Shown one piece after another: positions 1-59,307 of a stretch of DNA of 64,000 bases (its first letter is position 1; each line of letters begins with the position of its first letter). The stretch is from the NCBI GenBank assembly GCA_022451485.1, contig JAKUQS010000006.1, forward strand, positions 23,648 through 87,647. Reading direction: 5' to 3'. The notes under the pieces were generated by a model. It saw nothing but the letters and a program-made list of their open reading frames with translations, searched no databases and was not told the DNA's origin. Origin of the DNA: Gammaproteobacteria bacterium (GTDB taxonomy: Bacteria > Pseudomonadota > Gammaproteobacteria > Arenicellales > UBA868). The position numbers and the translations under genes were made by a program.

Positions 1-551
1 GCGAGTTCACATAAAACCCTCAAATTCAACTTGTGACTCTCCTCACTGACACCCGCGCAACCATCTGACAATAAAGTTACATTAAAACCTCTGAGATGGG
101 CATCACGGACCGTGGATGCAACCGCGCCGTTAGTCACTATTCCTCCAACAATCAGGTTTTTGGTATTTAACTGCTTCAACAGCCAGTCCAATCGGGACAT
201 AAAAAATGCCGAGTAGGTCACTTTCTCAATCGCGTAGTTACTTGGTGCGAGTTCGTCCACTAAGCGGTGTCCGAAAGTTCCCGATTGGAAATCGCCCGCT
301 TTTAGGAAAGGTCGCAATTCTTTCAAGTGACTTGAGATCAACACACCTCCGGCCATATCCCGAACCAATGTAAAATGTGAGGAAATAATTGGTATCCCTA
401 ACTTGCGACTCCTGTCGACTACGCCTTGCAAATTCTTGACCACCCTGTTGAACGCCACAACGTTCACACCGCCCTTCGCATAGGCACCGTTTTGATGAAT
501 AAAGTCATTTTGCAGGTCCAACAGCAATAAAGCCGTATCCGAAGCATCCAT
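1..551 (-). CDS. Isochorismatase-family hydrolase; partial, C-terminus lies beyond window start
   Basis: Reverse-strand translation from ATG at 551..549 reads MDASDTALLLLDLQNDFIHQNGAYAKGG...LIVGGIVTNGAVASTVRDAHLRGFNVTLLSDGCAG with no stop before nt 1. The D-x-Q-N-D-F N-terminal motif is typical of the isochorismatase / cysteine-hydrolase fold, but the catalytic Cys position appears replaced by NGAV. The ATG overlaps the TGA of the upstream hyuA by 1 nt (TGATG). This ORF is absent from the ORF track because it runs off the edge. Confidence 0.6.
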   Translation of the reverse strand, partial: MDASDTALLLLDLQNDFIHQNGAYAKGGVNVVAFNRVVKNLQGVVDRSRKLGIPIISSHFTLVRDMAGGVLISSHLKELRPFLKAGDFQSGTFGHRLVDELAPSNYAIEKVTYSAFFMSRLDWLLKQLNTKNLIVGGIVTNGAVASTVRDAHLRGFNVTLLSDGCAGVSEESHKLNLRVLCEL

Positions 552-2593
552 CACGAATCCAATTCCATTATCAAATTTCCGTAGGAGTCAATGGACCCCT
601 TTAGTTTTTCATCAACTAGAACTGTTGAATCAGCCTGTTCGATAAGGCAAGGCCCCACAATTACAACACCAGGCTCTAAATGATCCCGTTGATACACAGG
701 CGTGGGTTGCCAGCTTCCCTCTACCCACATATCCCTTGTAGCGGCGCCTGCTGTTTTCCCCAGAGGAGACGCTGAACGCACCAACAGCGACAAATCAAAG
801 TCGGGACGTTTGCCTACAAGAATAATCCGCAGGTTCAGGATTCTTATGGGAATATCTTCCAATATGGTGCTATAAATTCGTTGATAGGTGTCCTCGAATC
901 TGCTTCGCACGCGTTCTGCATTGATCGGCTGTTCTGACAAACGAACGGTAATGGTATGGGTTTGCCCGACGTAGTTCATATCCAACTCAAGACAAACCGA
1001 AACTTCCTTTACCGAACGCTTCGATGTTTCGAGGCTTTCAAATAACTCATTCTGCAAACGTTGGGCTTCTTCGTTTAGGAGCCTAATATCCAATTCCTCC
1101 AGTAACGCATTAATGGTCTTCACACGATCAAATCGAATATCAGCAACGACGCATCCAAACGCACTCATGGCTCCGGGATATCTGGGAATCACGGCCTTAG
1201 AAAGGCCAACATCCTGGATTAAAGCGCCGGCGTGTAGAGCACCTCCGCCACCGAAAGGCATTAAAACAAACGACTCTGGCTGATAGCCCCGTTCAATTGA
1301 AAGCAGACGAATCGCCCCTGCCATTTTGGAGTTTGCCACTCGTACAATTGCATCAGATGCCTCCATTACACCCAGATTCAATGGACCGGCAATGTGCAAC
1401 TCAATCGCGCGCTTGGCAGCATTGACATCTAGCTCCGCTATTCCTTTACCGATGGGTGCTAACGGATTAATCCGCCCAAGAACCAGGTTCGCATCGGTTA
1501 CCGTGGGCTTCGTATTTCCTTTTCCATAACAAACCGGGCCAGGTTCCGATCCTGCACTCTCTGGACCGATTTCAAGAATTCCATCTGGCCCTAAATGAGC
1601 GATAGAGCCGCCGCCAGCACCGATCGTGACGATCTCAATCATAGGAGAGCGCGTAACCATCCCGAAATCAATAGACGTCTCTGCAACCATCGACGTCGAA
1701 CCGTTCGCGATCAGCGACACATCAAAGCTTGTTCCACCCATGTCACTGGTGATGACGTTGTCATAACCACTTTGATGGGCGATATACGCCGCGCCAATCA
1801 CACCAGCAGCTGGGCCGGATAATGTTGTTCTAACAGCTTCCCGGCACGCCATAGCGGCACTAGTCAATCCGCCATTCGACTGGACAATCAAGAGCTCGGT
1901 CCCGCTGTCACGTGCCTGTATTTTTGTCTCTATTTCGTTGAGATACGGCCCTAAAACGGGTTGAAGATAAGCGTTGATCGCGGCAGTCGAGGCCCGTTCA
2001 TACTCTCTTATTTCAGGTAACAGTTCAGAAGAAGTGGACACATAATCGTTAGGCCATACGGTTCTCAAAACTTCAGCCGCCCGTTTTTCATTTTGATGGT
2101 TAGCGTAAGAATTGATAAAAAATACAACCACTGATTCCACGCCGTGTTCGAGCAGTGCTCGCGCTACCGACTTAATCTCACTCGGATTCACTGGGTCCAT
2201 TACTGTCCCATCTGCCAGAGTCCTCTCTTGAACCTCTTTTCGACAATAACGTGGAACAATCGGATCAAAATGCCCCCACAAGCCCCACGTATGTGGGCGG
2301 TCTCTTCGACGCATTTCTAGAACATCACGAAATCCTTTCGTCGTAATTAGACCCACTCGGGCGCCGGTTCGCTGGAGCAAAGCATTAGTCCCAACCGTTG
2401 TACCGTGGATCATGCTTCCAAGATTGCCTAACGATGCCTTAAAGCTTTCTAAGCCCCTCTCCACACCTTCGGCTTGCGCCTCATGATCGGTTACTACTTT
2501 CACAACCCGACAGGTTTCATTTACAGCGTCATAAAGAAATAGATCTGTATAGGTACCCCCCACGTCGACTCCAACCACCGTCTCGGTTAGCAC
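551..2593 (-). CDS. hyuA: Hydantoinase/oxoprolinase family, A-type (ASKHA ATPase) subunit (pair 1)
   Basis: Contains VGVDVGGTYTDLFLYD, MIHGTTVGTNALLQRTGARVGLITTKGFRDVLEMRR and DMGGTSFDVSL, all hallmark hydantoinase_A / acetone carboxylase beta motifs. The ORF-track start is TTG. A GTG at 2593 with GGAGGA 8 nt upstream is the likelier start and sits 1 nt after the hyuB stop. Symbol is family-level. Confidence 0.85.
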   Translation of the reverse strand: MLTETVVGVDVGGTYTDLFLYDAVNETCRVVKVVTDHEAQAEGVERGLESFKASLGNLGSMIHGTTVGTNALLQRTGARVGLITTKGFRDVLEMRRRDRPHTWGLWGHFDPIVPRYCRKEVQERTLADGTVMDPVNPSEIKSVARALLEHGVESVVVFFINSYANHQNEKRAAEVLRTVWPNDYVSTSSELLPEIREYERASTAAINAYLQPVLGPYLNEIETKIQARDSGTELLIVQSNGGLTSAAMACREAVRTTLSGPAAGVIGAAYIAHQSGYDNVITSDMGGTSFDVSLIANGSTSMVAETSIDFGMVTRSPMIEIVTIGAGGGSIAHLGPDGILEIGPESAGSEPGPVCYGKGNTKPTVTDANLVLGRINPLAPIGKGIAELDVNAAKRAIELHIAGPLNLGVMEASDAIVRVANSKMAGAIRLLSIERGYQPESFVLMPFGGGGALHAGALIQDVGLSKAVIPRYPGAMSAFGCVVADIRFDRVKTINALLEELDIRLLNEEAQRLQNELFESLETSKRSVKEVSVCLELDMNYVGQTHTITVRLSEQPINAERVRSRFEDTYQRIYSTILEDIPIRILNLRIILVGKRPDFDLSLLVRSASPLGKTAGAATRDMWVEGSWQPTPVYQRDHLEPGVVIVGPCLIEQADSTVLVDEKLKGSIDSYGNLIMELDS

Positions 2594-2594
2594 T

Positions 2595-4271
2595 TCAGGT
2601 GTCCTCCGTCGGCACAATTAATGGAGACGACACGTACCCTTGGAGGTTATCGTTGGCAATATCCCGCTCACTTCTCAGCGCTGAATCACCGTAACCTCCA
2701 CCCCCGGGAGTTTCCAGACGGACCCTTTGACCACGCCTCAACTTGATGTCTATCGCTTTTGAGCCTAGCGGCGGCGAAACCATCTTTCCGTTATGCTCAT
2801 AAGCGAAAAAGTTGACCATCCCCTCTTCGCCGCCACAGACCCCCGGAGGCCCCCACCGACTTCGATCACCAAATAGAAAAACGTCGGCATCTTTCTCCCG
2901 TAATACAATTTCATAAATCGCACCAAGGCCTCCACGATAACGACCCTCACCTCCACTATTAGGCCGAAGAGCCCATTCCGAGAAGTAAATTGGGTAAGCA
3001 GCTTCCAGGATTTCAAGCGGTGGTATCGTGGCCATGGAAATTGGTGCATTTCCATGATTCAACCCATCCCCTTCCGGGTGCCCCCCATGCCCACCGCCGA
3101 AAAAAGAAAACATTACCCAGCGTTCGCCCGATGCTTTATATCCAGACAACGATAGGGCATTGATTGTTCCATAAGCACAGCCGTTCACTATAGAAGGGTC
3201 AGCTTTCGACATGGACACGAAAATAACGTCGATGATTCGAAGAATCGTTTCGGTATACCCGCCGACTGGCTTTGGCGCGGTCGCGGCCAGGAGACTGTTC
3301 TCGGGAATGATGAACTCAATCGCAGACAGAACCCCCGAATTAGCCGGCACATCTTTAAAGAGATGCTTAAGCCCGACATAACATGCTGCTATGGTAGTTG
3401 ATCGAGACACGTTGACCGGCCCAGAACACTGAGCAGCGGTCCTGGAAAAGTCAAGAACCAATTTGGAACCATGGATAGTTAAATCCACAGCGACCTTCAA
3501 CGGATCATCATTCGTTCCATCATTATCTAACCAATCGTCCGCTGAGTAGCATCCGTCAGGCAGTCGGGATACGTGTGCGCGCATCATCTGCTCAGCAACA
3601 GTTTTTAAGTGTTGACAAATTTGCCAGACCACTGGCGACTCAAAATCCCTCAAAAGTTCGTTCATTCGATTGTTGCCAAGTTCCAGCGCACCAATCTGGG
3701 CCTTCAAGTCACCGAGTAATGACACCGGCAGACGCGAATTCGCCTGCAGAATATGAACAATGTCCAGATTCATAACGCCCCGATCGATAAGGAGGACGGG
3801 AGGGACCAGAATTGCCTCCTGATGGCTCTCGGTTGCTGCAGGATTATAGTTTCCCGGGACATTGCCACCGACATCATGCCAATGGGCAACTGACGCAATA
3901 AAACAGAATATCTTGTTGTCTTTGAAATACGGTCGAATCAGTTTGAAGTCTGAAAGATGGGTACCGCCCTCATAGGGGTCATTGAATAAATAAACATCGC
4001 CCGCGCGAATCGTGAGATGGTTTTGTTTCAGGTGATTAATTAAGTGTTTAACAGCGAACGCCATTGTCCCAACAAATATCGGCAATCCGTTCTTGCCTTG
4101 AATTAGGGTTTCACCTGTAGAGGGATGATACAAGCCATGACTTGCATCTCTCGCTTCGGCAATAATGGGATTGAATGCGGAGCGAAAGAGCGTCGCATCC
4201 ATCTCATCTGCGATTTGTTCCAATCGCCCTTTTATAACGGCAAGGCTGGTTGGATCAATTTGTACTGTCAT
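2595..4271 (-). CDS. hyuB: Hydantoinase B/oxoprolinase family subunit (pair 1)
   Basis: N-terminus DPTSLAVIKGRLEQIADEMDATLFRSAFNPIIAEARDASHGLY, plus the NDPYEGGTHLSDF motif and C-terminal GGGGYGDS, typical of hydantoinase_B. The ORF-track start is GTG at 4292. ATG at 4271 with GAAGGTGG upstream is preferred. Confidence 0.85.
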   Translation of the reverse strand: MTVQIDPTSLAVIKGRLEQIADEMDATLFRSAFNPIIAEARDASHGLYHPSTGETLIQGKNGLPIFVGTMAFAVKHLINHLKQNHLTIRAGDVYLFNDPYEGGTHLSDFKLIRPYFKDNKIFCFIASVAHWHDVGGNVPGNYNPAATESHQEAILVPPVLLIDRGVMNLDIVHILQANSRLPVSLLGDLKAQIGALELGNNRMNELLRDFESPVVWQICQHLKTVAEQMMRAHVSRLPDGCYSADDWLDNDGTNDDPLKVAVDLTIHGSKLVLDFSRTAAQCSGPVNVSRSTTIAACYVGLKHLFKDVPANSGVLSAIEFIIPENSLLAATAPKPVGGYTETILRIIDVIFVSMSKADPSIVNGCAYGTINALSLSGYKASGERWVMFSFFGGGHGGHPEGDGLNHGNAPISMATIPPLEILEAAYPIYFSEWALRPNSGGEGRYRGGLGAIYEIVLREKDADVFLFGDRSRWGPPGVCGGEEGMVNFFAYEHNGKMVSPPLGSKAIDIKLRRGQRVRLETPGGGGYGDSALRSERDIANDNLQGYVSSPLIVPTEDT

Positions 4272-4403
4272 ACCACCTTCTCGTAGGGGCACCTCTCAAG
4301 GACTAACCATCGATCAGTCATACCGGGTTTCGGCTTTTCTACAATACGTTTTTATTGCGCACAACTCGAAAGAAGAATTCTTAACGACAGCTTCTACAGC
4401 GGG

Positions 4404-5732
4404 TTAATAAAGTTGATCGGGGAGCCAAAGTGCTATTTGCGGGAACACAACCAACAATACTGCAGTAGAGGCAAGTAACAAAAAGAAAGGGAACGCGGCC
4501 ACCGCCACACGCTCTATGGGCTGCCCTGACAATGCCTGTAATACAAACAAATTAAAACCTACAGGTGGTGTGACCTGTGCTAATTCGACAGTAATAACCA
4601 AGAAAATACCAAACCAGATTGGGTCATATCCCGCCGCAATAATAAGTGGAAGCGTTATAGGTAGGCTCATCACGCAAATAGACAGTCCTTCCATAAAAAG
4701 ACCCAACAGGAGATAAAAGACACCGATAATCAAGATGAGGCCATATGGACCCAAGTCCAGACTAACTATCAGCTTGGAGATTTCTTGTGGAATGTGCAGA
4801 AATCCCATCGCGGATGACAATACTCCTGCAGCAACCAGAATAGATAGCGCCATACAGGTGATGCGTACAGCACCTCCTAGCGAGTCGACAAATACCTTCC
4901 ATGTAAGTTGTTTTAAAATAATCGTAATGGCTAATGTCCCCGTAAGCCCAAGCGCGGCCGCCTCTGAAGGAGTTGCGAGTCCACTGTAGATACCGCCAAG
5001 AACGAGTGGGATTAATATGAGTATCGGAAGCATGAGGCCCAAACCTCGCAGCCGATCACGGTTCGTATAACGAGGCCCGGTACGTTTTGGCACCAAGTCA
5101 GGATTGATTGAACAACGCACGGCGATAAAAGCTGAGTAAAGACCAGCTGCAAGCAGTCCTGGAAGTAATCCAGCTGCAAATAACCTCGCGATCGATACTT
5201 CCGCTAAGACCCCATAAATAATCATGACAATTGACGGGGGAATCATCAGGCCCAGGCTTCCAGCGCCGGCCAAAGAACCGACGGATAACCATTCGTTGTA
5301 ACCCCTTTCCTTTAGAGCGCTCGTCGTAATCCGACCAATCGTTGCGGTTGTCGCAACACTTGAGCCACTCACTGCTGCGAACAAGGTGCAACCGGCAATA
5401 TTCGTGTGAAACAGTCGCCCCGGCACCAAGTCAACCCAAGGCTCCAGACCGCGAAAAAGACGTTCTGACACATCTGTCCTGAAAATTAGCTCCCCCATCC
5501 AAACGAATATTGGAATAGCAGCCAGTTCCCATGTATTGGCCGTACGCCACATGGTTCCTTTGAAAATGTTTCCGATACGATCAATGGGCATATCTAGGAA
5601 TAACACGAGGCCGGTAACGCTTACTAATGTCAGCGCCGCGAATACCCAAATCCCCATCCCAAGAAATAGAAACATGATGAGGAGGACTAAGCCTGCGACC
5701 AGCAGTGGCATTGTAGAAATAAGTTCGGACAT
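4404..5732 (-). CDS. dctM: TRAP transporter large permease (DctM family)
   Basis: 442 aa, polytopic. Matches DctM N-terminal and core sequence (LLVAGLVLLIMFLFLGMGIWVFAAL...). Confidence 0.85.
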   Translation of the reverse strand: MSELISTMPLLVAGLVLLIMFLFLGMGIWVFAALTLVSVTGLVLFLDMPIDRIGNIFKGTMWRTANTWELAAIPIFVWMGELIFRTDVSERLFRGLEPWVDLVPGRLFHTNIAGCTLFAAVSGSSVATTATIGRITTSALKERGYNEWLSVGSLAGAGSLGLMIPPSIVMIIYGVLAEVSIARLFAAGLLPGLLAAGLYSAFIAVRCSINPDLVPKRTGPRYTNRDRLRGLGLMLPILILIPLVLGGIYSGLATPSEAAALGLTGTLAITIILKQLTWKVFVDSLGGAVRITCMALSILVAAGVLSSAMGFLHIPQEISKLIVSLDLGPYGLILIIGVFYLLLGLFMEGLSICVMSLPITLPLIIAAGYDPIWFGIFLVITVELAQVTPPVGFNLFVLQALSGQPIERVAVAAFPFFLLLASTAVLLVVFPQIALWLPDQLY

Positions 5733-5752
5733 GGCGATCTTTACCGGCAGCC

Positions 5753-6283
5753 TCAGTCGATACCTAAATTCGCGGCCCGAGACGCATCAAGATCAACTTG
5801 ATTACTCAAAACCCTTAAAAGATAAGCCAGCAGTTGGAGCCAAAGTATGATTAATCCTGCCAGCATGAAACTTTCGGGTATCCACTGCTGCATGTTGAGC
5901 ATAGTCCCACTTGTATAACCGCTATCAAACTTTTTTAGAACACTCCGCGCGAAATACCACAATGGCAAGCCCATTGCGATTAACGTGCCGATACAGCAGA
6001 ACACTTCGAGCACTTTTCTGGCAGTTGAGGTTGGATTCATCTTGGAAAGGACTAAATTCACTCGAATAAGACCACCTTTTTCCAATGTGTAACCCATTCC
6101 GAGATAAGCGCACGCCGCAACGCTGTATCCAATCAATTCATCAAGAGCAAAGGTGGAGGTGCTGAACGCACTTCGCACGAAAATCTCCAGCAATATGTGG
6201 CAAACCATATAGACAATGATTGCACCCGCCAGGACTGCCGCAGCCCGGGATATAAAGAAAACAACGTTTTGAAATGTTTTCAT
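5753..6283 (-). CDS. dctQ: TRAP transporter small permease (DctQ family)
   Basis: 176 aa, 4 predicted TM helices, placed between dctP and dctM as in canonical TRAP operons. Confidence 0.7.
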   Translation of the reverse strand: MKTFQNVVFFISRAAAVLAGAIIVYMVCHILLEIFVRSAFSTSTFALDELIGYSVAACAYLGMGYTLEKGGLIRVNLVLSKMNPTSTARKVLEVFCCIGTLIAMGLPLWYFARSVLKKFDSGYTSGTMLNMQQWIPESFMLAGLIILWLQLLAYLLRVLSNQVDLDASRAANLGID

Positions 6284-6376
6284 ATACGTTCCCGACTAAA
6301 CGGAATCCAGCCCCTAACGCGAATGTCAGGGGCTGGATTTTCCAATGCTCAGTCGAAACCAAAAATGCCGGTGACG

Positions 6377-7402
6377 TTAACCGCCGTAGTTGGCCTTCAT
6401 GAATGCATCAAATTCCGCCATAATTTTTGCGGCCTGATCAGCACCCATATTTTTAATCCAAGCTTTTTTTAACGGCGCCGCAGCGACCTTAATATGATCG
6501 ATAACAGACGCTGGAACGTCCTCAACATATTCTGCTCCGACTGACTTCAGCGTGTCTTTGTTCGCCGATACGCGAGACCGCGCGCGCTGCCATGCGGCCT
6601 GTTCCGCTCGGTCAGCAGCCACTCGTAAAGCAATCTTCATTTCAACAGGCAAATCGTTATAGACATCAAGATTCATAGCGACCGCATTGATACCCATTGC
6701 GAAACCAATTGAGTTGAAATACTTGCACCCCAACTCCCAAAACTTTGAGTTAACACCGCCTTCATCGGAGGTTAATACGCCCGTAATCGTGCCGTTACTC
6801 AGCGCTGGAATAACATCTGCCCAGCTTAATTGAATGGGAGAAGCACCGGCGGCCTTCAGGACTTCGGCACCCTGGGCATTGTAAGTTCTGATCTTCAGGC
6901 CTTTCAGGTCTTCAGGTTTGCGAATCTTGGTTTGTTCCCAAATACCCTGCGGAGTCCATGGCGCACCGTACAGCATGGTCTGATTGTGCTTGTTAAAAGC
7001 CTTCTCATAATAAGGCTTCGCCACAATAAACATGGCTTCCGTTTCATTCACAGTCGTCGTGATAAATGGCAAGCTTTGCAGATCAAAGATGGGTTCAATT
7101 TTCTCTAGGGATGAGAAGGGAGTGCTTGCGATGGGCACAGCCCCATCCATAACCGCCTCAAAGTGCTGGCGTGATTTGAATCCAAGTCCCCCACCAGGAT
7201 GGTTTGTTACTGCGATTCGACCACCACTGGTAATCGCTACCGCTTTAGCAAAATCAGCATCCGTCTGTCCTGGCAACGAACTTGCCTGGTATTCATTAGC
7301 CAAATCAAATTTAAATTCGGCCGCAAGCACCGCACTACTAACAGCAAACAACGCAGCGATACCACCAACTAGACCAAGACCGCATTGAATTAATCGATTC
7401 AT
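6377..7402 (-). CDS. dctP: TRAP transporter substrate-binding protein (DctP family)
   Basis: DctP-like mature domain with a signal peptide (MNRLIQCGLGLVGGIAALFAVSSAVLA). Preferred ATG at 7402 has a GGAGG Shine-Dalgarno 8 nt upstream. The ORF-track start at 7444 is probably too long. Confidence 0.8.
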   Translation of the reverse strand: MNRLIQCGLGLVGGIAALFAVSSAVLAAEFKFDLANEYQASSLPGQTDADFAKAVAITSGGRIAVTNHPGGGLGFKSRQHFEAVMDGAVPIASTPFSSLEKIEPIFDLQSLPFITTTVNETEAMFIVAKPYYEKAFNKHNQTMLYGAPWTPQGIWEQTKIRKPEDLKGLKIRTYNAQGAEVLKAAGASPIQLSWADVIPALSNGTITGVLTSDEGGVNSKFWELGCKYFNSIGFAMGINAVAMNLDVYNDLPVEMKIALRVAADRAEQAAWQRARSRVSANKDTLKSVGAEYVEDVPASVIDHIKVAAAPLKKAWIKNMGADQAAKIMAEFDAFMKANYGG

Positions 7403-7551
7403 GGATGTCTCCTCCTTTTTAGAATATTCTGACAACAAAAACATAGCTAGCAGCGTGACGTTAACATAATTTATACAATCGATCAGATTACGCTACAACA
7501 ATAGGAATCTCGTGGATTTTACAGGCCTCAACACATTCAACAGATAACCGT

Positions 7552-8445: not shown

Positions 8446-8483
8446 ATTGTTGCCTGGCAACTCTCACTACCGAACCTGAAGCC

Positions 8484-10839: not shown

Positions 10840-10896
10840 CAGCATACTCTCCAGCCACGATCTCACAACCAGGGAAAAGACACTCAAGCACATCAC

Positions 10897-24752: not shown

Positions 24753-24763
24753 GCGCGCTCTCT

Positions 24764-25486: not shown

Positions 25487-25512
25487 GGATAACCCAGTTA
25501 TTGAACAATGTC

Positions 25513-33283: not shown

Positions 33284-33307
33284 CCACGCTTACCATAGCC
33301 ACTAGTT

Positions 33308-36351: not shown

Positions 36352-36508
36352 TATACTACCTTGCCAATTTGTAACCCTTCACCCACTTATTGCGTACAGC
36401 TACATACGCCTAGCCACAGCGTGCGCCGTCCACAACAATCCTATGTTGGAAACTTACCCTGGTGACCGAATACGCCGACCACCAGGGTAATAAACCACAA
36501 AACGCAGA

Positions 36509-38370: not shown

Positions 38371-38440
38371 TCACACCTCATTGCAAAAGATGAAGACGAT
38401 CACTAATCATATAGTGTCTTTATGCGTTCAAACAGCCCGC

Positions 38441-49676: not shown

Positions 49677-49685
49677 AGCATTCCC

Positions 49686-50465: not shown

Positions 50466-50648
50466 TGCCGAACTTAGCAGCCAACCAATTGGTCGATGAA
50501 TATCGTACACAATCACCCATCTTTAAACACGATCACACAGGGTTTCTAGGGGAATAACCAGCTAGTGTGCGACAGTCAACGCGGGGCTCGCTCGTATTCG
50601 CTATGATAACAGCGATCCATGTAACCTGAGCCTCGGAACTCATTAATC

Positions 50649-52850: not shown

Positions 52851-52891
52851 TCTTCACCAGCTCACCACTCTCAGAAAATCACAGCATTATC

Positions 52892-54376
52892 ATGTCAAAA
52901 ATTGCCATCGGTGGGTTTTTGCACGAAACAAATTGTTTCGTGCCGATGAAAACAGACTATGCATACTACGCAACTGGAGGAGAATTCCCCCCTTTAGCCC
53001 ACGGACAAGAACTAATTGAACGAACAAAGGGTGCATCGTTCGGCATGTCAGGCTTTTTGGACACTATCTCCCCCTCTCACCAGCTCGAACCGTTACTGTG
53101 GGGACACGCCGGCGCCGGTGGATATATCACAGACGAATGTTTTGAACGAATCACAGGTGAACTGATAGGTCGTTTATCCGGCTTGATGCCCGTCGATGCC
53201 GTTTACCTAGACCTTCATGGCGCAATGTGCAGTGAAACCTTTCCCGATGCGGAAGGTGAATTACTGAGGCGTGTGCGTGCCAGCGTTGGGGCTTCAACGC
53301 CTATCGTAGTCAGTCTGGATTACCACGCGAACATAACCAGTCAGATGGTTGAATGTACTGATGGAATGGCCGTGTACCTTACTTATCCGCATATCGATCG
53401 ACAACACACCGGCGCACGGGCTGCCAGAATTCTTATGCGGGTACTTGAAGAGGGACTACCAGGCCACCGACTATTACGGCGCATACCATTTCTTCTGCCC
53501 CTTAACTTCCAATGTACCTTAGTTGATCCGTCGAAACGAATTGTCGACACAAGCGTGGATGGCGAGGGTGGTTTAATCCTCAACCTTTGTTACGCAGCCG
53601 GTTTCCCACCATCGGATCTAAACGAGTGTGGGCCAGCGGTGGTATGCCATGGCTACTCTGCCGAGGCTACCCTCGCTGCAATCGACCAATTAAACAATCT
53701 GGTTCTTGAGGAAGAGGCAACGTTTGCGGAACCCCTAATGACTCCAGACGAAGCCGTGACTGAAGCCATCATTACCAGTCGAAGCTCGAATCGGCCCGTC
53801 ATCATCGCAGACACTCAAGACAACCCCGGCTGCGGAGGCACCGGCGATACGACCGGCCTCTTGGAAGCCCTCGTACGCCATGATGCTACCGATGCGGTTC
53901 TCTGCGTCTTCACCGATGCTGAAGCTGCTTCCTCAGCACATCAGTCGGGTATCGGGGCACAGTTGAAGATGACCATCGGCGCAAAACATAACCTCCCCGG
54001 CGTGGAGCCATTTAGCGCTACGTTCGAGATCACGCATCTCAGTGACGGGATATTTACCACTACAGGGCGGAGCATCCCCGGCCGCAACATCAATCTTGGG
54101 CCCTGTGCGGTTTTGAAGATTGGGGGAGTATCCGTGTTTGTCTCAAGCAAAAGAATGCAAGCCTATGATCAGGATATCCTTCGTCATATTGGGATTGACC
54201 CAACGAAGCAAAAAATTCTCGCCCTGAAAAGCACCTGTCACTTTAGAGCTGATTTCGATCAGATCGCGGAGAAAACGTTAATTGCCATCGCGCCAGGGGC
54301 GCATATCGTCGATCCAAGAACATATCCCTACCGTCATCTTCGCAGTGACGTCAAACTACTTCCTGGTTCCGGTTAA
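52892..54376 (+). CDS. M81 family metallopeptidase (MlrC / microcystinase C-like)
   Basis: MSKIAIGGFLHETNCF N-terminus (DUF1485-like) and C-terminal DUF1446-like region, the typical two-domain MlrC architecture. Confidence 0.65.
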   Translation: MSKIAIGGFLHETNCFVPMKTDYAYYATGGEFPPLAHGQELIERTKGASFGMSGFLDTISPSHQLEPLLWGHAGAGGYITDECFERITGELIGRLSGLMPVDAVYLDLHGAMCSETFPDAEGELLRRVRASVGASTPIVVSLDYHANITSQMVECTDGMAVYLTYPHIDRQHTGARAARILMRVLEEGLPGHRLLRRIPFLLPLNFQCTLVDPSKRIVDTSVDGEGGLILNLCYAAGFPPSDLNECGPAVVCHGYSAEATLAAIDQLNNLVLEEEATFAEPLMTPDEAVTEAIITSRSSNRPVIIADTQDNPGCGGTGDTTGLLEALVRHDATDAVLCVFTDAEAASSAHQSGIGAQLKMTIGAKHNLPGVEPFSATFEITHLSDGIFTTTGRSIPGRNINLGPCAVLKIGGVSVFVSSKRMQAYDQDILRHIGIDPTKQKILALKSTCHFRADFDQIAEKTLIAIAPGAHIVDPRTYPYRHLRSDVKLLPGSG

Positions 54377-54389
54377 AGGGGCACGACGG

Positions 54390-55550
54390 TTAGTCGACCC
54401 GCTTAATTCCCAGCTTCTCTCGCTTCTCTAACCACCACTCCCACGACGGCGGCCAGTCCTTCCACTTCGTCTCGCACTCAAGCGTACGCGCAGCATGAAG
54501 AACCCAGTGTGGGTCGTAGAGTAACTCTCTGCCCATAGCGATCAAGTCGGCTCGCCCATCTTGCAGTATCTTTTCCGCAAACTCAGGCCGTGTGATCAAA
54601 CCAACAGCGATGGTCGGAATAGGAACCGTGTTCCGCAAATGCTCCGAATACGGGACCTGATAACCCTCTTCTAGAGATTTTCCCTCTTTTTCAAGGCGTG
54701 CCAACGAGTTTGCCGCACCAACACCACGAGACGAACAATCAACAATGTCCACGCCTCGGGATTTCAATTCTCGAACAAGATTCACCGAATCCTCGAGATC
54801 CCAACCCCCATCCACAGCATCGATACTAGAGATTCGAAAACTCAACGGAAACTGCTCAGGCCAATTTGCGCGAACTGACTCGGCCACCTCCAGTGCAAAC
54901 CGCATGCGTCCCGAGCGATCTCCTCCGTAAGCATCGGTACGTCGATTACTGATGGGAGAATAAAACGAATGAATCAAGTACCCGTGCGCTGCATGAATCT
55001 CAAGAAATCGAAACCCGCTAAGCGCTAGTCGAGCTACTCCTTTTCCGAAATCATCGACCAGCTGATGAATTTCGGCTGCCGAAAGCGCATGCGGAGTGTG
55101 ATAGCCCTCGACATTCGCTTCATCCATTGGCCCTGCAGGCTGCCATGGTGGTTCTCCCCGGGCAGCGTCGCTCTCCCCCAATGGCTGCAACCCATCAAAC
55201 GGCCGCTGCCGAGCAGCTTTAGTTCCCGCATGACCCATCTGAGCCGCAGGGACCGCGCCAGTTTCCTCTATAAATTTTGCGATGCGAGTTAAGGCCGGCA
55301 CCTGTGAATCATCCCAGATACCGAGATCCCAATGCGTGTTTCGCCCCCTCGGCTCCGGCGGAAGCACTTCCGTAAACACGCAGCCGACGCCGGCGACCGC
55401 ATACTTAGCGAGGTGCTGGAAATGCCATTCTGTGGCAATACCGTCATCACCAGCGAGATACATCTGCATTGGCGACAAAACAATTCTGTTGCGAAATGAA
55501 ACACTGCGAAGCTCATACGGCGAAAACAACAATGACTTGCGGCTTCCCAC
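54390..55550 (-). CDS. Old Yellow Enzyme family NADH:flavin oxidoreductase
   Basis: RNRIVLSPMQMY, the HAAHGYLIHSFYSPISNRRTD motif and GVDIVDCSS. Convergent with the MlrC gene (13-nt gap). Confidence 0.8.
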   Translation of the reverse strand: MGSRKSLLFSPYELRSVSFRNRIVLSPMQMYLAGDDGIATEWHFQHLAKYAVAGVGCVFTEVLPPEPRGRNTHWDLGIWDDSQVPALTRIAKFIEETGAVPAAQMGHAGTKAARQRPFDGLQPLGESDAARGEPPWQPAGPMDEANVEGYHTPHALSAAEIHQLVDDFGKGVARLALSGFRFLEIHAAHGYLIHSFYSPISNRRTDAYGGDRSGRMRFALEVAESVRANWPEQFPLSFRISSIDAVDGGWDLEDSVNLVRELKSRGVDIVDCSSRGVGAANSLARLEKEGKSLEEGYQVPYSEHLRNTVPIPTIAVGLITRPEFAEKILQDGRADLIAMGRELLYDPHWVLHAARTLECETKWKDWPPSWEWWLEKREKLGIKRVD

Positions 55551-55583
55551 GCTACGATCGTCGATGCAAACCAGTAAAATCAG

Positions 55584-57269
55584 TTAATTAGACAGGCCAT
55601 AATCGTTCATTGCAGAGCGTTCGCTAACTTTACGATTCCGCAGGTCATCTTGGACCGCTTCGCGATCACGACCGTTAGGATCGCCGTAGCCCCCACCACC
55701 TGCAGTTTCAACGATAAGTCGCTCACCTGAATGAACCATTGTGAAAAGTTTGGAGTTAACTACCTCTTCGGTACCATCTCGACGGACAATTTTAGAAAAG
55801 GCCTTGGCGCCGTCGCCGCCCCCTTGTGAGCCACGGGCTGCATGACGGTGGCGTTCACCACGATGGGTCAGTGCGATGTTGTCTGTTAAAAATTCTATTT
55901 CGCGCACGCAGCCCAGACCGCCGCGAAACTCCCCAACGCCGCCAGAGTCCGTTCGCAAACTCATTCGATGAACGCGGGCCGGCGCCTCCAACTCAAGAGC
56001 CTCCACCGGCATATTCATACAGTTGCTCCCGTCGGTTTCAATCACGTCGACGCCATCTTTTCTAGGTCCGCCTCCACTACCACCAGCATTAAACTCGCCC
56101 ACCACATAAGGTTTGCCCGATAGGTTTTTCCCACCCAGTGACAAAACCAATAATTCACCAGCGCTATCGGCGGGTATCTGTTCAGGAAGTGCGCCTTTCA
56201 ACGCACCCACAATACTGCCGGCAATGCGCTTGAGTGTCGCCGTGCGCGAATTTACTGGGGCGGGTTCCACGGGATTGACCAACGTGCCTTCTGGCAAATG
56301 GAGGCTAACAGGCCGAAAACAGCCGCCATTGGTCGGAATGGAACTATCGGTCACGGCTCGAACTGCGTAATAGGCCGCTGCCTGAGACCCAGACTTGACC
56401 GCATTAAAGGGACCCCGTGTCTGTGGGTCTGTACCTTCAAAGTCACAGTGGAGTTCGCTACCACTCACCGTAACCGCAACTTCGATCCTTACTGACTCAT
56501 CCAAATTAACGCCGTCATTATCCAGGTAATCAACATAACTATAGGTACCATCAGGTATTGCTTCCAACGCTTTTCGAGTCAACTGTTCGGATCGATCCAA
56601 CAGTTCATTGAATATTCTCAAGGTTTGGCCGTAACCGTATCGACCAGCAAGTTCAGCAACTCGGCGCGCGCCAACCGTACAAGCAGAGATTTGAGCGCCG
56701 ATATCGCCCATAAAAACCTGGGGGACACGAACATTCAATTTAAGCATCTCAACCAGCGTATGATTAAACTCGTTTCCTTCTCGGAGCTTTAGGGGAGGTA
56801 TTCGAATGCCTTCTTGATAGATTTCTGTCGCATTTGGCGGCACAGAACCAGGAGACATACCACCGACGTCCTGATGGTGTGTCATCGCCGCACTAAATGC
56901 TATGGGCCGCTCGTCAAAGAACACGGGCATCACGATCGCAATGTCAGGGAGATGGGTTCCACCGAGATAAGGATCATTCATAATATAGAGGTCGCCCGGT
57001 TTCATTTCATCCATGGGAAATGTTCGGGCAATAGTCTCGACAATCGGAATCAAAGTCGCCAAATGGATCGGAATCGCAATGGCTTGGGCAAGCGTTTCGC
57101 CATTCGGCGTAAATAGACTAGCCGATGCATCCAGACCTTCTTTGACAACGGTTGAAAAGGAACTCCGCAATAACGTTGATTGCATTTCGTTCGCGATGCC
57201 GTCTACCTTGTTTCGCACCACTTCAAGCGTTATCGGATCTGTCGTTGTAACATCGATCATTCGATTCAT
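55584..57269 (-). CDS. hyuB: Hydantoinase B/oxoprolinase family subunit (pair 6)
   Basis: DPITLEVVRNKVDGIANEMQSTLLRSSFSTVVKEGLD, NDPYLGGTHLPDIA and GGGGYGDP. Confidence 0.85.
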   Translation of the reverse strand: MNRMIDVTTTDPITLEVVRNKVDGIANEMQSTLLRSSFSTVVKEGLDASASLFTPNGETLAQAIAIPIHLATLIPIVETIARTFPMDEMKPGDLYIMNDPYLGGTHLPDIAIVMPVFFDERPIAFSAAMTHHQDVGGMSPGSVPPNATEIYQEGIRIPPLKLREGNEFNHTLVEMLKLNVRVPQVFMGDIGAQISACTVGARRVAELAGRYGYGQTLRIFNELLDRSEQLTRKALEAIPDGTYSYVDYLDNDGVNLDESVRIEVAVTVSGSELHCDFEGTDPQTRGPFNAVKSGSQAAAYYAVRAVTDSSIPTNGGCFRPVSLHLPEGTLVNPVEPAPVNSRTATLKRIAGSIVGALKGALPEQIPADSAGELLVLSLGGKNLSGKPYVVGEFNAGGSGGGPRKDGVDVIETDGSNCMNMPVEALELEAPARVHRMSLRTDSGGVGEFRGGLGCVREIEFLTDNIALTHRGERHRHAARGSQGGGDGAKAFSKIVRRDGTEEVVNSKLFTMVHSGERLIVETAGGGGYGDPNGRDREAVQDDLRNRKVSERSAMNDYGLSN

Positions 57270-57273
57270 GGCG

Positions 57274-59307
57274 TTATCCCTTTTTCAAGACCAGTTCACC
57301 GCTTTCAAGCGCCGTTGCCGTCCAACCCTCATGAAGGACTGTGGTCGTATCGGCTTGTTCAATTATAGCGGGCCTATCGATAACCGTTCCGACCGAAAGG
57401 CGTGCCCGATCCAGGATATCGACCTCAATTGAGGAGTCACTATTGAAAATCACTGAGCGACGCCCTTTCAATGGGTCTTCGTTGATCGGTTTAAGCAATA
57501 TTGGAGCTTCCGCTTCGTCACTACGGGCCCGGTGAACACTCCGTAAATTGACAATCCGGGCGGGCGACTCGGTGCTATATCCAAAAACCTGCTCATGGGC
57601 CCTAATAAAATCTCTATAAATTGAGTCACGTACGTTTGCATCGCTCATATCGACAATGATGTCTAGATAGTGGGACTGGCCCACATAACAGATATCTGCA
57701 GCATGAATCACCTCGACATTCTCAACGTCTTTTGCCTCCGCATCCATCAGACCGGAACACTGTTCATCCAAATCGTCAAATACCTTCTCAAGTGCTTGGG
57801 TCTCCGCCGCATCAAGATCACACGGGAAGCCAATCGATACTTCATGTTCAATAGGTGCTACCAGTAAACCTTCCGCTGACAAAACGCCGGGATGGCGGGG
57901 TACGATAACGGTTTCAATACTGAGTTCCTCAGCAAGCGGTATTCCATGAACCGGTCCCGCACCACCTAACGGCACGAGCGCAAAGTCCCTTGGATCATGG
58001 CCTTGACGTATTGATACTTGTCGCATGCCCTCGGCCATTTGCGCATTCACCACTCGATGAATTCCGAGCGCAGCCTGCTCGACGGACATTGATAGGGGGA
58101 TAGCGATGGTGTCTCGAATGACTTGTTCTGCAAGATGGCTATCTAACGAGACGGAACCCCCAGCAAAATATTCAGGGTTCAAAAATCCTAGCACAATCGA
58201 CGCATCGGTTACCGTAGCTAGCTGCCCCCCGCGGCCATAGCACGCGGGGCCTGGATCCGCGCCAGCTGACCTCGGCCCCACTCTCAGTCCCCCAGCCTCA
58301 TCGAGCCACGCGATACTGCCACCACCGGACCCAATCGCATTTACATCAACCATCGGAACGCGTACCGGATACCCGTCAATGCGACCTTCAGGTCGAACCA
58401 GGGGCTGGCCCCCGGCTACCAGGGCGATATCACAACTGGTTCCCCCAATATCCACCGTAATAAGGTCGTTCATTCCTGCGACCTGCCCGGCCCTACTCCC
58501 ACCAATCACTCCTGCGGCAGGCCCCGACAGAAATAATCTGACAGGTCGTTTAGTTGCGGTCTCGGCGGCACTGATACCCCCACGGGATTGCATTACCTGC
58601 AACGGAGCATTAACACCGAATCGGGATAAAGCAGATGCTAACTCTCCCAGGTATTCGCGAAGCACCGGTTTGGTATACGCATCAAACGCCGTGACCACAG
58701 TCCGTTCATATTCTCTAAATGCCGGATCGACGTCCGATGACAATGAAACCGATAGGTCAGGATATTCGGACTCGATAACCTCCCGCACTCGACGCTCATG
58801 TGTCGGGTTTAGAAAGGAAAATAAGAGACAAACCGCTACAGAGGTGACCCCCTCACTTCGCAATGTTTCAAGCGCCTGCCGCAGCGAGTTCTCATCCAGC
58901 GGCACAAGTATCTCCCCCTCACTCGACAGTCGCTCGATGACCTCCACCCGTCGGGCGCCTGGCGCGAGGAATACGGGTGTTTCAGGCTCTAACTCAAGCT
59001 CATAGATATCGGTCCGCATCTGCCGCCCAATCTCAAGCACATCGGCAAAACCGGCGGTCGTGATTAAACCGCTGTGCGCCCCTTTTCTTTCCAAAACCGC
59101 ATTGGTGGCCACTGTAGTGCCATGGACAAAGCGCCGAACTGACTGCACTTCATCGCCCGCGGCATCAAGAATCTGTCGCACACCATTCATCACCGCTTTC
59201 GACGGTTCACTAGGGGTGCTAGGCACCTTTAAAACCAAATCCGGGTGACCCGTCCGCCGACAGATCAGATCGGTGAAGGTGCCACCAGTATCTACGCCAA
59301 TATCCAT
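57274..59307 (-). CDS. hyuA: Hydantoinase/oxoprolinase A-type subunit (pair 6)
   Basis: MDIGVDTGGTFTDLICR, FVHGTTVATNAVLERKGAHSGLITTAGFADVLEIGR and DIGGTSCDIALV. Stop lies 4 nt before the hyuB ATG. Confidence 0.85.
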   Translation of the reverse strand: MDIGVDTGGTFTDLICRRTGHPDLVLKVPSTPSEPSKAVMNGVRQILDAAGDEVQSVRRFVHGTTVATNAVLERKGAHSGLITTAGFADVLEIGRQMRTDIYELELEPETPVFLAPGARRVEVIERLSSEGEILVPLDENSLRQALETLRSEGVTSVAVCLLFSFLNPTHERRVREVIESEYPDLSVSLSSDVDPAFREYERTVVTAFDAYTKPVLREYLGELASALSRFGVNAPLQVMQSRGGISAAETATKRPVRLFLSGPAAGVIGGSRAGQVAGMNDLITVDIGGTSCDIALVAGGQPLVRPEGRIDGYPVRVPMVDVNAIGSGGGSIAWLDEAGGLRVGPRSAGADPGPACYGRGGQLATVTDASIVLGFLNPEYFAGGSVSLDSHLAEQVIRDTIAIPLSMSVEQAALGIHRVVNAQMAEGMRQVSIRQGHDPRDFALVPLGGAGPVHGIPLAEELSIETVIVPRHPGVLSAEGLLVAPIEHEVSIGFPCDLDAAETQALEKVFDDLDEQCSGLMDAEAKDVENVEVIHAADICYVGQSHYLDIIVDMSDANVRDSIYRDFIRAHEQVFGYSTESPARIVNLRSVHRARSDEAEAPILLKPINEDPLKGRRSVIFNSDSSIEVDILDRARLSVGTVIDRPAIIEQADTTTVLHEGWTATALESGELVLKKG

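Follow-up and report, generated by a model that had tools for sequence, protein, structure and literature searches.

Six deeply diverged HyuA/HyuB-type gene pairs, probably in separate catabolic modules, within 59 kb of a gammaproteobacterial contig

Enzymes of the ATP-dependent hydantoinase family spend ATP to open the rings of very stable compounds, namely cyclic amides such as hydantoins, 5-oxoproline, and lactams, and to our knowledge, only a handful of them have been characterized. The 64,000-nucleotide stretch of gammaproteobacterial DNA analyzed here (the window) carries six HyuA/HyuB-type gene pairs (P1 to P6) within 59 kb, which raises the question of whether they are copies of one operon, the cargo of a mobile element, or different enzymes and of which reactions they may catalyze. 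The probable answer is that the window is ordinary chromosome, in which separate conserved catabolic modules encode six two-subunit enzymes that diverged long ago within the ATP-dependent hydantoinase, 5-oxoprolinase, and caprolactamase family. The genes hyuA and hyuB (COG0145 and COG0146) are enriched in sponge symbionts, as seen in enrichment counts only (PMC5649159). As with that enrichment and with the expansions of catabolic paralogues in marine bacteria, a single catabolic family is present in many copies in the window, which belongs to an uncultured marine heterotroph; the sponge symbiont study does not describe clustering, module structure, or domain fusions.

The six HyuA/HyuB pairs

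An earlier note, made from the sequence alone, had placed six neighboring pairs in the window, and a Pfam search confirms them, with gene starts refined (Table 1). All six A subunits contain Hydant_A_N, Hydantoinase_A, and Hydant_A_C (PF05378, PF01968, and PF19278), and each B subunit has Hydantoinase_B (PF02538), with whole-protein E values from 1e-52 to 1e-177; the 12 proteins all pass the Pfam gathering scores, and the main domains reach 178 to 590 bits. The tight coupling of A and B also holds, the junctions ranging from overlaps of 8 nt (P5) and 4 nt (P3) to gaps of 1 nt (P1), 4 nt (P6), 18 nt (P2), and 19 nt (P4), as does the gene order, which is A then B in P2 to P6 and B then A in P1 alone. 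A seventh pair was absent from the 10 kb that flank the window on the left and from ∼3.5 kb on its right.

The A subunits of this family carry the ASKHA motifs DxGGTxTD, DxGGT, and GxxPGP, and D11 and D295 of the caprolactamase subunit CapA are essential (PMC8453981). These motifs are intact in A1, A2, A4, A5, and A6, and A3 has DVGGTFTN, DWGGN, and G-PGP in their place. The Asp-His-Asp-His metal tetrad, which is Asp41/His99/Asp102/His124 in CapB (PMC8453981), is complete in all six B subunits. The six loops that the earlier note quoted (DPYEGGTHL, DPYTCNGAISHL, DPYSAGGAGGHL, HPYLGASHS, DPYWSNGAVSHL, and DPYLGGTHL) are exact, and their differences at the DPY motif had been taken as a sign of functional diversification. 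The DPY residues are not metal ligands (PMC8453981). What varies is the loop that follows DPY and precedes the conserved His-x-x-Asp ligands, and it comes in two length classes. The different gene context of each pair fits functional diversification.

Table 1. Features of the window, with positions and strands
Feature	Position (nt)	Strand	Remarks
Isochorismatase-family amidase, third copy, last P1-operon gene	1-551	-	Truncated by window edge
A1, HyuA-type, 680 aa, GTG start 2593	551-2593	-	Pfam; ATP motifs intact
B1, HyuB-type, 558 aa, short DPYEGGTHLSD loop	2595-4271	-	PF02538 E 5.8e-158; metal tetrad intact
P1-operon upstream genes: 3-hydroxyacyl-CoA dehydrogenase-like, FGase (N-formylglutamate amidohydrolase family), TRAP transporter DctP/DctQ/DctM	4404-9404	-	
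Isochorismatase-family amidase 1, directly upstream of A2	18349-18996	+	Pfam
A2, HyuA-type, 790 aa	19051-21423	+	Pfam; ATP motifs intact
B2, HyuB-type, 630 aa, long loop DPYTCNGAISHLND, without Rad52-like domain	21442-23334	+	Pfam
Redoxin/AhpC-like protein, 325 aa	23353-24330	-	Conserved in L087, L099
hyp151, free-standing Rad52/Mgm101-fold protein, 146-151 aa	24312-24752	-	
Isochorismatase-family amidase 2	24764-25558	-	41% identity to amidase 1
hyp181, small multi-pass membrane protein	25513-26058	-	Paralogue of hyp155, 27% identity, E 1e-16
A3, HyuA-type, degenerate ATP-binding motifs	26266-28329	+	Pfam 178 bits, lowest of six
B3, HyuB-type, 763 aa, Rad52-like N terminus and Hydantoinase_B core	28326-30617	+	Metal tetrad intact
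B3 Rad52-like domain, residues ∼62-134	28509-28727	+	
854-aa SPFH/Band7 protein and ABC-transporter ATPase, directly downstream of A3-B3	30719-34390	+	
ABC transporter: two permeases and SBP_bac_8 solute-binding protein	34511-37792	-	73-96% identical in relatives
hyp155 and hyp350, membrane proteins without Pfam family, downstream of B4	37903-39493	-	
B4, HyuB-type, 708 aa, HPY signature, C-terminal Rad52-like domain	39554-41680	-	Pfam; N-methylhydantoinase-like core
B4 Rad52-like domain, residues 626-707	39560-39805	-	Profile match E 8.9e-10
A4, HyuA-type, 693 aa	41700-43781	-	Pfam; ATP motifs intact
B5, HyuB-type, 604 aa, long loop DPYWSNGAVSHLPD	44707-46521	-	Pfam
A5, HyuA-type, 688 aa	46514-48580	-	Pfam; ATP motifs intact
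TauD-family dioxygenase and SDR, upstream of A5	48816-50516	-	
Old-yellow-enzyme-type flavin oxidoreductase, downstream of B6	54390-55550	-	Syntenic in L007, L008, L012
B6, HyuB-type, 561 aa, short loop DPYLGGTHLPD	55584-57269	-	PF02538 E 3.5e-177
A6, HyuA-type, 677 aa	57274-59307	-	Pfam; ATP motifs intact
MetE-like (Meth_synt_2) protein and two SDRs, upstream of A6	59420-62274	-	Syntenic in L008

Divergence, distribution, and origin of the pairs

Twelve genes of the same two families within 59 kb could be the product of a recent tandem amplification of one hyuAB operon, serving gene dosage with little functional divergence, and the earlier note had named such clustering as evidence against its own reading. 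The probability of this explanation is close to nil. Identity between pairs is just 28 to 40% for the A subunits and 27 to 39% for the B subunits, and the only DNA repeats are 48- to 59-nt patches at conserved motifs; this deep divergence and the lack of DNA-level repeats exclude a recent amplification. In addition, each pair is far closer to its own orthologues elsewhere than to its paralogues in the window, with identities of 92% for B2 in the related locus L099, 77 to 90% for B4, 60 to 91% for B6, and, for B5, 58 to 65% in distant species and 79% in the sister-species contig L096. It is also very unlikely that the region is a mobile genomic island that arrived by horizontal transfer and collected hyuAB cassettes. 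Single modules do have close relatives under very different taxon labels, including Alphaproteobacteria and MAGs labeled Gemmatimonadota and Vicinamibacteria, which fits module-level transfer over long timescales. However, some of these odd labels are probably binning errors, the window contains no long DNA repeats, tRNAs, or Rfam matches, no integrase, transposase, or flanking repeats were found in it, its GC content is uniform (46 to 56% along the window), and its gene order is shared with a sister species and with a more distant relative.

The separate conserved modules that we favor are also visible in the distribution of the pairs. In a tblastn search of 72,556 plasmids and chromids, B6 gave 1.39 places per positive record, and the maximum among the 40 records listed was 6 places, in a whole 1.16-Mb replicon. 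Against this plasmid and chromid baseline, the density is high, as the earlier note had held, but its "island" is not a one-off. P2-P3-P4 occur in identical order in L099; contig L096 of the sister species RIS_SAG_16, a single-cell genome that is the closest genome, has P5, P4, and P3 ordered as in the window, with P6 on the same contig; and two or three pairs lie within ±10 kb in 9 of the 31 full-length loci around B6 orthologues. Several relatives are labeled Arenicellales or Acidiferrobacteraceae; this taxonomic placement draws on the titles of MAG and SAG records, some of which are clearly mislabeled or misbinned. The synteny with L099, the RIS_SAG_16 contig, and the direct adjacency of A5-B5-A6-B6 elsewhere (see below) indicate that the "island" is a mosaic of recurring modules. 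The possibility that this density is common across the taxon, which the earlier note had set against its claim, therefore applies in part, at the level of the lineage, in that the modules recur in relatives.

Nearest characterized enzymes

By sequence comparison, P4 is a split relative of the solved N-methylhydantoinase (EC 3.5.2.14). B4 matches residues 701 to 1281 of structure 7hk5 with 597 bits and ∼57% identity, and A4, with 618 bits, is collinear with residues 1 to 687. The ATP-hydrolyzing N-methylhydantoinase (7hk5-7hka and 9h03) is a single chain of 1,288 aa, whereas P4 consists of two genes; 7hk5 and B4 have the metal ligands in common, including the loop ...PYLGA[ST]HSPD, and the active-site loop reads NDPYLGATHSPD in the solved enzyme and NHPYLGASHSPD in B4. 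HPY stands in place of DPY in B4 and in all 120 of the B4 orthologue clusters examined, 117 of which have the extra C-terminal Rad52-fold motif. Because of the DPY-to-HPY change and the extra domain, the P4 substrate may differ from that of N-methylhydantoinase. The other five B subunits are distant from 7hk5 (199 to 278 bits) and from CapB (139 to 273 bits); B1, for example, scores 199 and 182 bits, respectively. The NCBIfam caprolactamase equivalogs NF050156 and NF050157, with a cutoff of 1,000 bits, give 171 to 318 bits for the B subunits and 320 to 573 bits for the A subunits. CapAB of Pseudomonas jessenii (6yra; PMC8453981) resembles the window pairs in its two subunits, ATP motifs, and metal tetrad and resembles P1 in its B-then-A gene order, but the identity of its B subunit to the window pairs is ∼20 to 35%, and the gene contexts differ.

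The earlier note had also listed ketone carboxylation among the candidate activities. Acetone carboxylase (5m45 and 5svb) and acetophenone carboxylase (5l9w) have homologous A and B subunits that agree with the window pairs in fold and type of metal site. That one or more pairs are ATP-dependent ketone carboxylases of these types rather than hydrolases is nevertheless unlikely. The B subunits score 139 to 597 bits against the lactamase and hydantoinase structures and 22 to 159 bits against Acx and Apc, the weakest scores of all characterized relatives, and the NCBIfam ApcA/C/D equivalogs give 82 to 322 bits, far under their cutoffs of 1,250 to 1,500. The Apc core is described as (αα′βγ)2 (PMC5214803), and genes for the gamma or epsilon subunits of the carboxylases were not found with the window pairs: no gamma-subunit Pfam family matched any of the 46 ORFs of at least 150 aa other than one antisense ORF inside A6, and inspection by eye of the ORFs of at least 50 aa outside the main genes revealed no gamma-like ORF beside a pair. 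The ORFs adjoining the pairs encode membrane proteins, amidases, or a Rad52-fold protein, the neighborhoods hold amidases and importers rather than ketone metabolism genes, and B3 owes its extra length to a Rad52-fold domain rather than to carboxylase-specific sequence.

P1 and the isochorismatase-type amidases

The P1 module would comprise a TRAP carboxylate transporter, an FGase-family amidohydrolase, B1-A1, and an isochorismatase-type amidase. On longer contigs, this third amidase is a 200-aa PF00857 gene with a 1-nt overlap with the A1 stop, and in the window, it appears as ORF 3-587 on the minus strand, with the start MDASDTALLLLDLQNDF. Amidase 2 has counterparts with 70 to 79% identity in L087 and L099. 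The best solved matches of amidase 1 are 26st_A (E value, 7.7e-30) and 4l07 (8.8e-30), followed by 1nba; 26st is an N-carbamoylsarcosine amidohydrolase, and 4l07 is an unnamed isochorismatase-family hydrolase, which we take to be maleamate amidase. N-carbamoylsarcosine amidohydrolase is thus the best match of the window amidases among the functionally named solved structures, but at ∼100 bits, they are equally close to 4l07. In L097, A4 has an isochorismatase-family gene immediately upstream, and the copies nearest P4 in the window (amidases 2 and 1) are ∼14 to 21 kb away. In the creatinine/N-methylhydantoin pathway, N-methylhydantoinase is followed by N-carbamoylsarcosine amidohydrolase, and this pairing resembles the Hyu-type pairs beside isochorismatase-fold amidases in the window; neither creatinine deaminase nor sarcosine oxidase was recognized next to the pairs. 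Since Hyu pairs recur with isochorismatase-type amidases, their adjacency suggests a two-step route in which a hydantoin or cyclic ureide is converted to an N-carbamoyl acid and then to an amino acid, CO2, and NH3.

The P2-P3-P4 supermodule and its Rad52/Mgm101-fold domains

The P2-P3-P4 supermodule would combine its pairs with an ABC importer, two isochorismatase-type amidases that resemble N-carbamoylsarcosine amidase, the 854-aa SPFH protein, three membrane proteins without an assigned family, and three Rad52-fold copies. L087, L090, L091, L096, L097, and L099 all retain the order A-B-Band7-ATPase, with hyp181 upstream of the A-B-Band7 unit in L087, L090, L091, and L099, and hyp155 and hyp350 are conserved in L087, L090, L096, L097, and L099. 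A2 has a 108-aa low-complexity N-terminal extension, which appears to be real because the L099 orthologue was called at 788 aa. The A3 orthologue in L099 is further degenerate (DIGRTFTE, NWTGN, and EFESSP), and the B3 orthologue there keeps the metal tetrad; identity to L099 is 47% for A3 and 57% for B3, versus 92% for B2. Judged from its motifs, A3 is a candidate noncatalytic subunit that may have lost ATPase activity. P3 appears to be a rapidly evolving P2 paralogue with a role that is probably structural or ATP independent.

The Rad52/Mgm101-fold domain occurs as the B3 N terminus, the B4 C terminus, and a free protein. The window copies have no PF04098 match, even at an E value of 5, and are themselves below the Pfam threshold, but two homologues, P0067 (26.0 bits) and P0134 (23.3 bits), exceed the PF04098 gathering score of 20.3, and the window copies match the profile of these homologues (E values, 1.5e-14 and 8.9e-10). 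The core consists of a helix, a three-stranded sheet, and a long helix, as in the single-strand-annealing fold of Rad52/Mgm101 (PF04098), which has a beta-beta-beta-alpha core and a preceding helix. This fold is otherwise known from DNA strand annealing, whereas in the window, the domain is either joined to a metabolic enzyme or encoded next to one, and no recombination genes lie near the copies. The domain pI is 5.0 to 5.4 in the window copies, compared with a median over 59 homologues of 6.8, and this acidity argues against DNA binding. One speculative reading, to which we give a low probability, is that P2-P3-P4 form a membrane-associated multienzyme assembly in which the Rad52 fold was recruited for oligomerization or tethering, linking two or three enzymes, the giant SPFH scaffold, the ABC importer, and the small membrane proteins. 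If so, P3 would be the structural core, and imported cyclic amides would be opened at the membrane.

P5 and P6 and the possibility of hetero-complexes

P5 and P6 would belong to a unit seen as A5-B5-A6-B6 in other Proteobacteria. In 7 of 80 other species, the four genes directly adjoin one another, with a homologue of SDR2 directly upstream in L020 and L049, and the two pairs are split by 7 kb in the window. It is possible, though doubtful, that the window does not encode six independent enzymes and that P2 with P3 (possibly with P4) and P5 with P6 form hetero-complexes in which P3 is a catalytically reduced structural partner. The adjacency of A5-B5-A6-B6, the conserved P2-P3-P4 order, the degenerate ATP motifs of A3 beside the retained metal site of B3, and the Rad52-fold domains on B3, on B4, and as a free protein all fit this arrangement, and the mixed A-type subunits described for the Apc core complex (PMC5214803) offer a precedent. 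However, adjacency fits consecutive pathway steps equally well, P5 and P6 are separated in the window, and L097 is without P5 upstream of P4 and has P6 on another contig.

Proposed mechanism and implications

For the six separate two-subunit enzymes that we consider probable, the mechanism can be transferred from caprolactamase, with ∼20 to 35% identity to the window proteins. By this analogy, the A subunit, an actin-fold ATPase, would use ATP to activate the stable cyclic amide and hand the activated intermediate over to the B subunit, whose Asp-His-Asp-His metal site would hydrolyze the ring. P2 and P3 offer a clear natural case of duplication followed by asymmetric divergence, with likely loss of the ATP site. 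The A-B-SPFH-ABC unit has an architecture found in no solved or characterized member of the family, and current annotations probably hide different biology there. For the conserved HPY clade with the C-terminal Rad52-fold domain, databases list >3,000 relatives, for which "N-methylhydantoinase B" is the only annotation. The six pairs are candidate lactamases and hydantoinases for biocatalysis. Six deeply diverged versions, each connected to a transporter or amidase of its own, are kept by a lineage that is seen in many marine metagenome assemblies, which points to a broad and unexplored ability to use nitrogen-rich ring compounds from dissolved organic matter.

Six divergent HyuA/HyuB pairs

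The ORF listing and Pfam scans of the window bear out six neighboring, coupled HyuA/HyuB pairs at the places given in an earlier note (P1 to P6 from left to right, with subunits A1 to A6 and B1 to B6). In each pair, one protein carries the Hydant_A_N, Hydantoinase_A, and Hydant_A_C domains and the other the Hydantoinase_B domain, with whole-protein E values of 1e-52 to 1e-177. Pair coordinates were refined by start-codon inspection and by gene calls on identical metagenome contigs. The gene order is B then A in P1 only and A then B in the other five pairs. An ORF at 58379-59005 (+) lies antisense inside A6 and was taken as spurious. Contigs reaching beyond the window showed no seventh pair in the 10 kb before its left end or in the roughly 3.5 kb after its right end. 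A2 has a 108-aa low-complexity N-terminal extension that is probably disordered; it is apparently genuine and not an artifact of start calling, because the ortholog in L099, a locus from a more distant relative, was called at 788 aa.

Coordinates of the gene pairs and associated features in the window
Feature	Position	Strand	Remark
P1	A1 551-2593; B1 2595-4271	-	1-nt gap
P2	A2 19051-21423; B2 21442-23334	+	18-nt gap
P3	A3 26266-28329; B3 28326-30617	+	4-nt overlap
P4	A4 41700-43781; B4 39554-41680	-	19-nt gap
P5	A5 46514-48580; B5 44707-46521	-	8-nt overlap
P6	A6 57274-59307; B6 55584-57269	-	4-nt gap
A2 N-terminal extension	19051-19377	+	108 aa
Rad52/Mgm101-fold domain in B3	28509-28727	+	N-terminal fusion
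Rad52/Mgm101-fold domain in B4	39560-39805	-	C-terminal fusion
Free Rad52/Mgm101-fold protein hyp151	about 24312-24767	-	146-151 aa
SPFH/Band7 protein and ABC ATPase	30719-34390	+	immediately downstream of A3-B3
Tandem repeat in SPFH gene	31685-31830		87-nt repeat
Membrane protein hyp181	25513-26058	-	small, multi-pass
Membrane protein hyp155	37903-38370	-	small, multi-pass
Membrane protein hyp350	38441-39493	-	350 aa, polytopic
Isochorismatase-family amidase near P1	1-551	-	cut by window edge
Isochorismatase-family amidase before A2 (Isochor1)	18349-18996	+
Isochorismatase-family amidase between P2 and P3	24764-25558	-
Gene cluster between P1 and P2	9793-18251
DMFA2_C protein and M81 peptidase	50649-54376	+	between P5 and P6

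The pairs are only 28 to 40% (A subunits) and 27 to 39% (B subunits) identical to one another, and the only DNA repeats are patches of 48 to 59 nt at conserved motifs, which rules out a recent amplification; the earlier note had named tandem amplification without divergence as one result that would overturn its reading of diversified paralogs, and that reading is supported. Orthologs elsewhere are far closer to each pair than its window paralogs are, with identities of 60 to 91% for B6, 68 to 100% for B4 (120 clusters, the best 120 of 3,397 matches), 58 to 65% for B5, and 92% and 57% for B2 and B3 relative to L099. A mobile island was likewise rejected, as the window has no tRNA, no integrase or transposase among 46 scanned ORFs, no long repeats, and a flat GC content of about 46 to 56%. 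The same 46 ORFs gave no match to transcription factor families, despite about ten operons in the window, and an Rfam scan at gathering thresholds gave no match, and so no riboswitch or other RNA control element.

Catalytic residues and nearest characterized enzymes

In caprolactamase, the ATP motifs of the A subunit are DxGGTxTD, DxGGT, and GxxPGP, with D11 and D295 of CapA being essential, and the metal tetrad of the B subunit is Asp41/His99/Asp102/His124 (PMC8453981). The tetrad is kept in all six B subunits, and all ATP motifs are kept in five of the six A subunits, the exception being A3 (DVGGTFTN, DWGGN, and G-PGP). The six loop sequences quoted earlier for the B subunits are exact. The "DPY motif" at which they were said to differ is really the beginning of a loop, with the His-x-x-Asp ligands at its other end. 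This loop has a short form in B1, B4, and B6 and a form that is three residues longer in B2, B3, and B5.

Closeness to characterized enzymes was judged by bit scores to solved structures and by a neighbor-joining tree of B2, B3, and B4 relatives. The B subunits score 199 to 597 bits against the fused N-methylhydantoinase 7hk5, 139 to 273 bits against caprolactamase CapB, 83 to 159 bits against acetophenone carboxylase, and 22 to 77 bits against acetone carboxylase. The NCBIfam equivalog models CapA/CapB and ApcA/C/D are the best matches for all 12 proteins, with scores far under the cutoffs, so that orthology to caprolactamase or Apc was rejected. Of the activities proposed in the earlier note, caprolactamase can thus be assigned to none of the six pairs. 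Ketone carboxylase is unlikely, because, besides the missed cutoffs, none of the scanned ORFs of 150 aa or more matched a gamma-subunit family and no gamma-like protein was seen on inspection of the ORFs of 50 aa or more outside the main genes.

P4 is the only pair close to a solved enzyme. B4 scores 597 bits against 7hk5 (about 57% identity), and A4 scores 618 bits and is collinear with residues 1 to 687 of the 1288-aa fused protein. The motif N-H-P-Y-x-G-[AS]-S-H-S-P-D, where the solved enzyme has N-D-P-Y, is present in 120 of 120 B4-type clusters, 117 of which also have the C-terminal Rad52-fold domain, which argues that P4 belongs to a large, distinct, and well-conserved subfamily next to N-methylhydantoinase. 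N-Methylhydantoin may or may not be its substrate.

Rad52-fold domains fused to HyuB

B3 has about 185 extra residues at its N terminus and B4 about 120 at its C terminus, and these extensions are homologous (30% identity over 74 aa; E value of 8e-7). A profile of the B3-type extension matches exactly three ORFs in the window, namely, B3, the B4 C terminus (E value of 8.9e-10), and the free protein hyp151 (E value of 1.5e-14). The extension domains and hyp151 had no match in a Pfam scan up to an E value of 5. Assignment to the Rad52 fold is supported by these profile matches and by the homologs P0067 (26.0 bits) and P0134 (23.3 bits), which pass the Rad52_Rad22 gathering score of 20.3. The B3-type architecture occurs in more than 100 clusters (40 to 44% identity, 99% coverage), and the B4-type architecture is more widespread, with 3,397 matches at E values of ≤1e-50, the best 120 of them at full coverage. 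HyuB relatives with a Rad52-fold domain number in the thousands in databases, and our literature search found no paper naming hydantoinase together with Rad52. The window domains are acidic (pI of 5.0 to 5.4; homolog median, 6.8), which makes DNA binding seem improbable. Members of the B4 clade can have the domain at either end, as it is N-terminal in the relative P0133 and C-terminal in B4 and P0177, and this placement would fit a role in tethering or oligomerization.

Unequal divergence of P2 and P3

In genomes with only one pair beside the SPFH gene, this pair is 47 to 52% identical to A2/B2 versus 43 to 45% to A3/B3, and in the neighbor-joining tree, B2 groups with the main extension-bearing clade, with B3 as a long sister branch. 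Identities between L099 and the window are 88 to 92% for B2, the SPFH protein, and the binding protein. Judged from these sequences, A3/B3 evolve much faster than A2/B2, with identities to L099 of 47% (A3) and 57% (B3) versus 78% (A2) and 92% (B2). The A3 ortholog of L099 (7941-9992) is more degenerate in its ATP motifs (DIGRTFTE, NWTGN, and EFESSP), and the metal ligands are still present in the B3 ortholog. An ancestral pair may have been duplicated to give P2, which would have kept catalysis and lost the Rad52-fold domain, and P3, which would have kept this domain and the place beside the SPFH gene and would be losing its ATP site.

The A-B-SPFH-ABC ATPase order is kept in at least six loci of other organisms. 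The 854-aa SPFH protein had no PDB match in a sequence search. The small membrane proteins hyp155 and hyp181 are paralogous (27% identity; E value of 1e-16). Together with hyp350, they belong to no Pfam or NCBIfam family (in the Pfam scan up to an E value of 5, hyp155 and hyp350 had no match and hyp181 had subthreshold matches only), and distant relatives that have the module also keep all three proteins.

Conserved modules and pair density

A module of a small membrane protein, A, B (about 765 aa), SPFH protein, and ABC ATPase, with an importer and two membrane proteins nearby, was found in an Arenicellales-labeled MAG (L087), a 4.9-Mb contig (L090), and a JGI contig (L091). L099 reproduces the complete P2-P3-P4 block gene for gene, and the sister species RIS_SAG_16 has P6 on one 117-kb contig, followed about 15 kb on by TauD-ADH-A5-B5-M20-YrdC-A4-B4-...-SPFH-B3, in the same order as in the window. 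A P5-type pair directly upstream of P6 (A5-B5-A6-B6) occurs in 7 of the 80 GTDB species with a B6 ortholog (L017, L020, L043, L045, L049, L082, and L011), with a third pair and an SDR also upstream in L020 and L049; P5 and P6 are separated by 7 kb in the window. Among 31 loci with full ±10-kb flanks around B6 orthologs, one pair was found in 22, two in 8, and three in 1. These findings show that it is common for paralogous pairs to cluster and that the lineage has inherited the arrangement. The closest B6 relatives include, among gammaproteobacterial ones, contigs labeled as Vicinamibacteria (91%) and Gemmatimonadota (77%) MAGs (L007 and L011); these labels are probably binning errors, and taxon labels of the lineage should therefore be used with caution.

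A scan of a plasmid/chromid collection with B6 gave 1.39 places per positive record, with a maximum of six per whole replicon among the 40 matches listed, and six pairs in 59 kb exceed the density seen in that collection. The unusual island of the earlier note is better described as several conserved catabolic modules side by side in a lineage that keeps them. In the literature on hyuAB copy number or paralog expansion, we found only the enrichment of COG0145/COG0146 reported for sponge symbionts (PMC5649159).

Gene neighborhoods and amidases

In the P1 operon, B1 and A1 come after genes for a 3-hydroxyacyl-CoA-dehydrogenase-like protein, an FGase-family amidohydrolase, and DctP-DctQ-DctM, and the last gene encodes an isochorismatase-family amidase. 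Another such amidase, Isochor1, directly precedes A2; among solved structures, its closest relatives are N-carbamoylsarcosine amidohydrolase (26st, E value of 7.7e-30; also 1nba) and the isochorismatase-family hydrolase 4l07, presumably a maleamate amidase. Between P2 and P3, the opposite strand encodes a redoxin-like protein, hyp151, an isochorismatase-type amidase that is 41% identical to Isochor1, and hyp181. P3 and the SPFH and ABC ATPase genes share one strand, and convergent to them are A4, B4, the family-less hyp350 and hyp155, a solute-binding protein, and two permeases. P5 is preceded by an SDR and a TauD-family dioxygenase, whereas P6 has genes for two SDRs and a MetE-like protein upstream of it and one for an old-yellow-enzyme homolog downstream.

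Isochorismatase-type amidases are thus encoded in three Hyu contexts (P1, P2, and P2-P3), and locus L097 has one immediately upstream of A4. In the known creatinine route, the step after N-methylhydantoinase is catalyzed by N-carbamoylsarcosine amidase, which has the isochorismatase fold. From this precedent and the amidases accompanying the pairs, we infer a general two-step logic in which ATP-driven ring opening would be followed by decarbamoylation.

The cluster between P1 and P2 (luciferase-like monooxygenase, SDR, MaoC hydratase, family III CoA-transferase, DUF35/ChsH2-like fusion, SCP-x-type thiolase, and AMP-ligase) resembles side-chain beta-oxidation or retro-aldol clusters. Between P5 and P6, a 733-aa protein (DMFA2_C) resembling the beta subunit of N,N-dimethylformamidase lies beside an MlrC-like M81 peptidase, and the two are syntenic in a sister species (L008).

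By themselves, the pairs of the window are new members of a known enzyme family. With the Rad52-fold domains, the conserved link to the SPFH protein and importer, and the degenerate ATP site of P3, part of the cluster departs from the known forms of this family and merits experimental follow-up.
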